Shown here: positions 8,806-9,661 of the stretch, piece by piece
Layout of the letters: each line of letters opens with the position of its first letter
Position numbering within the stretch: the stretch's first letter is position 1
Origin: Rhabdochlamydiaceae bacterium
Lineage (GTDB): Bacteria > Chlamydiota > Chlamydiia > Chlamydiales > Rhabdochlamydiaceae
Assembly (NCBI GenBank): GCA_047459655.1
Contig: JAJREF010000003.1
Location: 32,001 to 96,000 of the forward strand
Length of the DNA: 64,000 bases
Direction: 5' to 3'
Notes under the pieces: generated by a model
Databases searched by the model: none
Told to the model about the DNA's origin: nothing
What the model saw: only the letters and a program-made list of their open reading frames with translations
Made by a program: the position numbers and the translations under genes

Positions 8806-9661
8806 TAGACCTCTTTCGAAATTATAATGGCCTGTATTTGAGATTATTTTTCCGCTAGTTGAAAGATCGATTTGTAGGTCATATTGGCTTAATATGACCT
8901 ACGTGCGACCGGTATGTCGCTAAACTAGAGGGTGAAAGTCCCTTACGGGCTCTTGTAAGGAGAACCGTTAGAGAAGGCAAGGGTGTCCACCGCGAGGTGG
9001 AATCTGAAGAAAGCCGTATACAAAATGCTGACCTGACGAACAGGAAGCGCATATGAGGCAGTGACTCTTGGATGAGAATGCGTAGAAATTCAAAGTCCAA
9101 TACTTACATAGAAGGGTCCATGTAGATGCGACAGGCTAGCAGGAAAGTGTTGTGAATTACCCGGTGAGATCTGCATTCATGCCCGACTATTACCCGACAC
9201 AAGAGGGGAACGACGGAGCTAGCGGAGTCTCTGAGAGATGCCGTGAAAGGTGCAGAAGTCAGCAGACGGCATAGTAATTCGTCGAAAGACGATGAAGGCC
9301 TGAACATGAAAACGAAGGGAAGAATCTAACCCTCTATGGGAACAAGGGTCACAGAAACGAAAAGGCCAAAACAAAGGACTCAGGACGGAATCCTGTACCC
9401 CCTCTGTATGGTGTGATGGTTGACTGGACGGGAAAGAAATTCGAACCTACCTGGCTGGGAAGGATACTGTTGATGCGATGCATACAACAACAGGACGATC
9501 GGCTAGGTCATAGTGATCATGAACCGCCGTATACGGTCCCGTACGTACGGTGGTGTGCGAGGACGGGAGCCTAATGGCTCCCTCCTACGCGATAAATCGA
9601 TCTTCCAACTAGCGGAAAAAGAACTCAAATCCAAGAGCATTAGAATTTCGAAAGAGGTCTA
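8806..9661. mobile_element. Palindromic MITE family A (~160 bp) interrupted by a group II intron
   Basis: Ends TAGACCTCTTTCGAAATT / AATTTCGAAAGAGGTCTA; ~80-bp arms around a GGCTT loop once 8903-9593 is removed; direct repeat TAATA at 8803-8807 and 9660-9664. Confidence 0.9.
8903..9593 (+). ncRNA. ORF-less group IIC intron (ribozyme), 691 nt
   Basis: 5' GTGCG, 3' CTACGCGAT; DV GAACCGCCGTATACGGTCCCGTACGTACGGTGGT (9521-9554) with CGC triad; DVI hairpin with bulged A at 9587; IIC motifs GCAAGGGTGTCC, GGAATCTGAAG, TTACCCGG, CAGAAGTCAGCAGA; EBS1 GTAG (9082-9085) complementary to 5' exon end CTAC. Confidence 0.95.

Follow-up and report, generated by a model that had tools for sequence, protein, structure and literature searches.

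The window analysed here is the whole stretch of 64,000 nucleotides, corresponding to C3:32001-96000 of a 1.61-Mb, 82%-complete assembly (genome G000). At the locus under study, an ORF is followed by a palindromic MITE, belonging to a family which we call A, and the MITE is interrupted by an intron (Table 1). The stop codon of the ORF overlaps the left target duplication of the MITE, so that the intron lies in sense right behind the ORF. Terminator calling detected none between this ORF (7465..8805) and the intron. The ORF whose stop codon was hit is also the second of two tandem paralogues (6337-7346 and 7355-8340), about 1,015 bp apart, which are 78-93% identical in the aligned blocks and match no Pfam family.

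Table 1 Features of the MITE-intron locus and of the other family A copies of the window (positions are those of the window).
Feature	Position	Strand	Basis or remark
Upstream ORF, 446 aa, no Pfam family	7465..8805	+	
MITE left 3-bp target-site duplication	8804..8806	.	5/5 full-length family A copies duplicate 3 bp
Family A MITE left part (5′ exon), terminal inverted repeat at 8807	8807..8902	.	
Core target hairpin, 8-bp stem 8878-8885/8891-8898, 5-nt loop 8886-8890	8878..8898	+	sequence, DNA fold
IBS1, adjoining the core stem on its 3′ side; in the full palindrome its partner is 8874-8877	8899..8902	+	
ORF-less group IIC intron, 691 nt	8903..9593	+	Rfam domain matches, D5/D6 fold, ORF scan
AGGAA motif, IIC-type domain I bulge	9042..9046	+	sequence; motif named in PMC1702495
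EBS1, four Watson-Crick pairs with IBS1	9082..9085	+	covariation in 29 introns; d3 fold
Likely EBS3 (G); G-A mismatch with 3′ exon A here, G-T at the C5 site	9125	+	covariation
Domain V, CGC triad at 9525-9527	9523..9554	+	fold
Domain VI, bulged A at 9587, plus intron 3′ end	9556..9593	+	fold
Family A MITE right part (3′ exon), terminal inverted repeat ends at 9660	9594..9660	.	
MITE right 3-bp target-site duplication	9661..9663	.	
Terminator-like hairpin 3′ of the MITE	9675..9703	-	hairpin call
Family A half copy ending in the central loop	4932..5011	.	
Empty family A copy, degenerate left arm, intact target junction 56360/56361	56275..56425	.	

The segment 8903-9593 is a real ORF-less class C (IIC) intron, precisely inserted in a real MITE. 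The Rfam D1-D4 models pass their cut-off, with 136.9 bits for the D1-D4-3 model at 8986-9156, and RF00029 scored 39.4, slightly under its cut-off of 40. The intron ends are GUGYG...AY and the folded domain VI exhibits a bulged branch A at 9587. The CGC triad and the AGGAA bulge are given as marks of class IIC by Toor et al. (PMC1702495). The domain models, the CGC triad, the AGGAA motif and a 4-nt EBS1 thus support the initial annotation, which had called the insert a group IIC intron; it had left unmentioned that the insert lacks an ORF. Examination of the open reading frames of the intron gave none inside 8903-9593, and this copy carries no class C RT.

Excision of 8903-9593 leaves a 163-bp element (8807-8902 joined to 9594-9660) that is identical to its own reverse complement at 144 of 163 positions, as expected from the claim that deletion regenerates a near-perfect palindrome, and that folds as a single long DNA hairpin with its loop at 8886-8890. 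The uninterrupted junction (56360/56361) and the half copy (4932-5011) were both found as previously described. The rejoined 8806-9661 matches an intact copy (C1:420902-421066) at 164 of 165 positions; no bases were therefore duplicated by the intron insertion, in agreement with the precise insertion claimed earlier. The bounds first given for the element, 8806..9661, are nearly right but have to be narrowed: considering that all five full-length family A copies duplicate 3 bp, the element proper is 8807-9660, with the target duplication at 8804-8806 and 9661-9663. Its small size, the lack of coding sequence, the inverted repeats, the dispersed copies and these duplications (5/5) confirm that the repeat is a multicopy MITE. 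One family A copy interrupts a family C element. Besides A, the MITE families of G000 are B, with about 14 copies, and C, with about 68 copies, and the ends of family C are common to a resident transposase element near C3:6640-7830.

A search of six open frames of family A against NCBIfam gave no family below E 0.1. Of 151 genomes in the order, 15 contain the terminal 16-mer of family A; the left arm of the family matched one of 60 related genomes, weakly. The same 16-mer has 74 matches in G059 and 12 in G136, which are presumed MITE bursts. In G112, a 914-bp element with the terminal repeats of family A encodes an HTH_Tnp_4 transposase in two frames; we take this element and its MITEs to be of the IS5 family, ISL2 type. 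The likeness to ISs of this presumed type and their MITEs lies in the shared terminal repeats, the G112 element encoding a transposase and family A being without ORF. In the 82%-complete assembly of G000, neither a G112-type transposase nor a repeated element of at least 450 bp with family A ends was found, and family A ends lie near none of the 12 DDE_Tnp_1 loci checked. A 1.47-kb element (C1:701916-703378) was rejected as the parent of family A, since it turned out to be another multicopy IS, which had copied a family A-type end as part of its long target duplication; at this place (C1:701900-703403; L356, L359) the IS carries an integrase-core transposase and about 16 bp of family A-type terminal repeat are duplicated. 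A REP/REPIN-RAYT origin was also rejected, as the 82%-complete assembly gave 0 matches to the Y1 transposase (PF01797), and the target duplications of family A, which point to a DDE-type element, likewise argue against it. The ends of family A presumably resemble Rickettsia palindromic elements (RPE); for homology to these, the six open frames gave no NCBIfam match and the plasmid records one 25-nt match, with E 0.5.

Exon recognition was analysed by covariation in 29 related introns with both ends readable, out of 73 parsed 5′ ends, a set which includes a probably misparsed row (L114, 382 nt) and a distant intron (L135). The four bases at 9082-9085 are Watson-Crick complementary to exon positions -1 to -4 in 28, 24, 18 and 15 of the 29 introns, compared to shuffle means of 8.0, 9.1, 7.0 and 7.2, and no covariation was seen between exon position -5 and the next loop base (8/29; 8.2 expected). 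The EBS1 of the initial annotation is thus the correct one. Its EBS3, T9121, is not: this base is nearly invariant, and it is pairable with the +1 base in 14 of 29 introns for 12.1 expected (p=0.22). G9125 can pair with +1, G-U included, in 24 of 29 introns for 14.8 expected (p=0.0006), and it is the only clear one of 13 positions tested for +1 covariation once G-U is allowed. We take position 223 of this intron to be homologous to position 223 of the O. iheyensis intron. The base 9125 is position 223, and A223 is EBS3 in O. iheyensis according to PMC3669008. The covariation makes 9125 the likely EBS3, short of proof because the related introns are non-independent and because 9125 additionally tracks exon base -1. 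The G-A mismatch with +1 at family A is the sole one among the 15 rows bearing a G at this position.

A second, identical 691-nt copy of the intron is present at G000:C5:319182-319872, and the identity of the copies at the two sites implies that the intron moved recently. The C5 copy sits behind a GC-rich hairpin which has only the last seven exon bases in common with the family A site. This hairpin is an antisense match, at 25 of 26 bases, to domain VI of another group II intron (L082), and it stands in place of the centre of a family B MITE, with the arms of that MITE on either side. The segment concerned (G000:C5:319146-319181, L003:846-881) consists of antisense domain VI and 3′ end of the other intron. 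A stem-loop directly 5′ of IBS1 was found for both G000 copies and for most relatives, and at the family A site it is the MITE central hairpin at 8878-8898, which supports the stem-loop originally proposed as the recognised one. Family A offers 10 strand-sites with an intact motif, in five copies, of which one is filled. The prediction that most intron copies would lie inside family A was not borne out, with one of two copies there and 9 of the 10 strand-sites empty; the mismatch at the probable EBS3 may explain this 1/10 filling.

In the 82%-complete assembly a single RT was matched, encoded by a full-length relative of the intron at C1:699634-701565 (L001). This 471-aa protein is above the cut-off of TIGR04416 and exhibits RVT_1 and GIIM domains, and no endonuclease family was found in a domain search of it. 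Its closest solved relative is the GsI-IIC RT (E 9e-140), and its best-matching relatives are mostly Chlamydiia, Rhabdochlamydiaceae or Parachlamydiales records. Aligned with the ORF-less intron, the full-length RNA shows 81% identity in the initial 443 nt and 97% in the final 92 nt. According to PMC4424553, almost every bacterial ORF-less intron shares its genome with related introns, the protein of which may act in trans. Judging from the sequences, the C1 relative is the likely donor of a helper RT for the ORF-less intron; its RNA reaches no more than 81% identity in domains I-III, so that the actual helper may lie in the part of the genome that the 82%-complete assembly lacks. The 3′ flank of the C1 intron is a family C arm, starting at the hairpin-plus-4 position of family C; on the 5′ side lies an unrelated hairpin, preceded by a duplicated tRNA 3′ end and a terminator. 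These mismatched flanks likely result from recombination between two copies, or from a misjoin. All three introns of the lineage in G000 touch a MITE. Additionally, two decayed group II intron 3′ remnants were observed (C1:598150-598335 and C1:294704-294741), one of which adjoins a half family A copy, itself adjoining a family C copy.

Matches to the intron were obtained in 15 of 61 related genomes, and matches to its 5′ motif in 48 metagenome stretches and in 21 of the 401 genomes searched across the phylum. Many of the 5′ flanks are ordinary terminators or short hairpins, terminators being found in G008, G005, G021, G031 and G002, and some are the ends of other introns, with domain VI in L037 and L082. 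In L037, L082 and L114 the introns are in tandem, a lineage member being inserted immediately downstream of the 3′ end of a different group II intron or immediately upstream of the start of one. Of 30 rejoinable sites, which include the probably misparsed L114 row, 13 lie in long palindromes spanning the junction, two of these being the sites of this very intron and several being about 145-180 bp long with terminal repeats. The other 17 fail the long-palindrome test, and at least one of them (L215) is MITE-like by eye.

The clearest case is G291, in which 7 of 8 intron starts share a single position in a MITE that has TA-flanked ends and is represented by 32 near-complete left arms; two intron 3′ ends run on through the right arm of this MITE. 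In G169, 2/2 starts lie in a family with 80 matches, in G273 two of three readable starts (four found) in a family with 50, and in G061 the intron lies in a family with 62, while the 3′ flank in G062 is a repeat with 53 matches, none of these match counts being copy numbers. The MITE families occupied in G291, G273, G169 and G061 have unrelated ends. The flanks in G303 (three starts) and G258 (two) present no shared repeat, by eye only. The proposal that MITE hairpins serve as repeated landing sites therefore holds across the lineage, in G291, G169, G273 and G061 and at the 13 of 30 sites. That both strands of the MITE are used is possible for family A, and the sign of it is indirect: two metagenome loci (L038 and L051) apparently show one MITE family entered in both orientations, by eye, and the filled G291 copies are all one-way.

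Considering these observations together, we regard it as probable that the ORF-less IIC intron was placed exactly after the MITE central hairpin by ordinary IIC retrohoming, with an RT that is likely borrowed. A MITE burst would seed the genome with many intergenic, neutral hairpins, each with the same four bases behind it. The intron would be transcribed by read-through from the ORF in front of it, as suggested by the lack of a called terminator between them, and the C1 RT, or a missing closer relative, would bind the excised intron RNA. The RNA-protein complex would then reverse-splice into exposed single-stranded DNA behind a stem-loop, guided by the stem-loop and by the 4-nt EBS1-IBS1 pairing. 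As IBS1 lies within the palindrome's own stem, insertion would require opening of the lower stem, in the manner of attC sites. In the absence of an endonuclease, priming would occur at the replication fork (PMC4424553). Introns with a fitting EBS1 would thus home into existing MITE copies one by one, terminators and other hairpins still being used, and the number of MITE hairpins, their intergenic location and the harmlessness of interrupting them would make them favoured targets. The mechanism appears to be the known IIC one, in which targeting by hairpin and IBS1 meets abundant MITE hairpins. Such repeats likely supply many copies of the ordinary hairpin target of IIC introns, which would not ride along with the jumping repeat.

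That the locus is an assembly chimera, the palindrome and the repeated intron being mis-joined, is extremely unlikely. The sequencing run X1 alone holds most of the stretch (0.86) and is possibly the source sample, runs X2-X4 holding short conserved parts. The X1 contigs leave the MITE hairpin uncovered at 8867-8895 (from depth bins), so that the 5′ junction is unbridged, and X1 carries one extra G after 9232, which both assembled copies are without and which is possibly an assembly error, suggesting that the assembly has small errors. Nevertheless, both junctions rebuild the MITE to the base, with IIC geometry and an EBS1 match of 4/4, and the same geometry recurs in unrelated assemblies. An X1 contig also spans the last 30 bases of the intron into 56 bases of the right arm, missing the 31-letter bridging rule by one, and in X1 the intron 3′ end branches into exactly those two flanks that the assembly shows, with 30 intron letters each. 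The 5′ junction of the C5 copy is bridged by X1 contigs. Mobility of the ORF-less RNA without protein, as a DNA-cleaving, self-integrating ribozyme, is also most improbable. It could account for two identical ORF-less copies and for the further short introns without full ORF (665-843 nt) in the lineage, and a study of protein-free self-integration has reportedly been published; but a related RT is present in the genome, and the conversion of inserted RNA to DNA requires reverse transcription. Hitchhiking, in which MITE-plus-intron composites are spread as a unit by the MITE transposase, is very unlikely too. In its favour, the composite retains both terminal repeats and the target duplication, G112 has the 914-bp transposase element with these ends, and seven G291 composites have different outer flanks. 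However, G000 holds a single composite and none of the sources of transposase sought above. In G291, 29 copies were compared (7 filled, 22 empty) by their left arms alone, most contigs ending inside the intron; differences between left arms amount to 4.38 bases for two filled copies, 4.21 for a filled and an empty one and 4.16 for two empty ones. The filled copies, scattered through the variant table among the empty ones, are no more alike than these, and only L231 and L236 are nearer to another filled copy than to the nearest empty one, each by one base. Filled copies as diverse as empty ones favour repeated retrohoming into existing, diverged copies over composite transposition; on the sequences, hitchhiking is largely refuted in G291, and the earlier suggestion that the intron travels with the transposed MITE did not hold.

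The abundance of MITE hairpins might be sufficient to explain their use. Among the hairpin-plus-CTAC sites of G000, family A accounts for 10 of 67 with stems of at least 7 bp and for 10 of 26 with at least 8 bp; by arithmetic from these counts, at least one family A insertion among two has a chance of about 28-62% under targeting by structure only. For the full-length C1 intron, family C accounts for 50 of 170 candidate sites. With such shares no special recognition of MITEs is needed, though the null is crude, its definition of a site having missed the real C5 site, a bulged hairpin. The alternative is a IIC sublineage specialised on MITEs, comparable to IIC-attC, whose protein prefers long palindromes or cruciforms or whose EBS1 was selected to match the resident MITE, and we consider it unlikely. 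Against a reading by abundance only, and for specialisation, long palindromes are found at 13/30 sites compared to 35 of 181 control hairpins, so that MITE use is somewhat higher; this control comprises the perfect hairpins found on a single strand of contig C1 in the MITE-rich G000, another genome than that of most sites, and was scored by a fixed threshold whereas the sites were scored by shuffles; the sites are also non-independent. One family each holds the 7/8 starts of G291, the 2/2 of G169 and the 2/3 readable ones of G273, the null having been drawn from G000 only. A G291 variant (L236) has an EBS1 matching the variant IBS1 of the copy which it occupies, and the EBS1 of the present intron fits family A at all four positions. 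Against specialisation stand the 17 sites outside long palindromes, the close relatives behind plain terminators, occupied MITE families unrelated in both ends and hairpins, the mismatch at the likely EBS3 in family A, and an occupancy that is low, 1/10 in family A and 7/29 examined in G291. In favour of ordinary retrohoming, the relatives settle behind any hairpin suited to their EBS1, be it a terminator, domain VI of another intron or a MITE.

The intron shares with the terminator-type IIC introns (B.h.I1, O.i.I1, GsI-IIC) the GUGYG start, the CGC triad, the AGGAA motif, the 4-nt EBS1 and the stem-loop before IBS1, as well as an apparently En-minus RT, here in the full-length C1 relative. 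It differs in that it has no ORF, the hairpin is a transposed MITE centre without T-tract, IBS1 is inside the palindrome stem, and the insertion falls, in sense, after a stop codon and before the following terminator-like hairpin. Published IS elements reportedly use REP sequences as targets, which also places a mobile element on a multicopy palindrome; these are, in contrast, DNA transposases. Toor et al. 2006 (PMC1702495) already place IIC introns at "terminator motifs or other inverted repeats". For the IIC-attC introns, insertion takes place behind the attC stem-loop or within it, terminators still being usable, and a recombination between two copies that joins unrelated flanks, proposed in PMC7923331, resembles the mismatched flanks of the C1 intron. 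The target here is, unlike theirs, no attC site, IBS1 varies by intron, and the insertion is in sense to the upstream gene. Membership in the IIC-attC group (TTGT/T, attC bottom strand, antisense to cassettes) was rejected, with IBS1/IBS3 being CTAC/A in the MITE and CTAC/T in the intron-derived hairpin.

The nesting resembles that described in PMC7306698 and PMC12584367, where group II introns find a neutral refuge in IS elements and further mobile DNA; the passages concerned have class C hiding after terminators with a slight preference for mobile neighbours, deal with annotated neighbouring genes and make no mention of MITEs. The Thiomargarita MITE in a group I intron (PMC4853749) is also a MITE-intron association, with reverse nesting and another intron class. 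No report of IIC introns in MITEs was found in the literature searched, which is weak evidence, most subscription papers, including the primary work on IIC mobility and structure, lying outside the search. By term search, two MITE papers (PMC10969869, PMC11602168) contain no discussion of introns, and passages of PMC6199540, PMC6053426, PMC9769881 and PMC4853749 report no MITE-intron nesting of this kind.

If this interpretation is correct, the natural targets of IIC introns widen from terminators and attC sites to MITE central hairpins, with a simple reason for IIC multiplication in repeat-rich endosymbiont genomes, and surveys of annotated neighbours would miss such targets. G291 is in this respect a natural experiment, with about 30 near-identical targets, filled and empty, including IBS1 variants. 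A wider reading, which we hold to be doubtful, is that of a chlamydia-centred IIC lineage with MITEs as its main homing sites, in which burst-fed introns share an RT and recombination reshuffles the chromosome. Each MITE burst would then be a multicopy target where introns with a fitting EBS1 multiply (7/8 in G291), ORF-less derivatives would spread on the shared RT, and recombination between copies in different families would reshuffle the chromosome, of which the unmatched C1 flanks would be an instance.

Other repeats were observed in the window. Family C MITEs are present at 6153-6323 and 33510-33680, the copies of this family including tandem and nested arrays, and a truncated copy of the family C-ended transposase element begins at 22545. 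Short coding tandem repeats, with periods of 24 bp and 56 bp, lie at 23752-23952.
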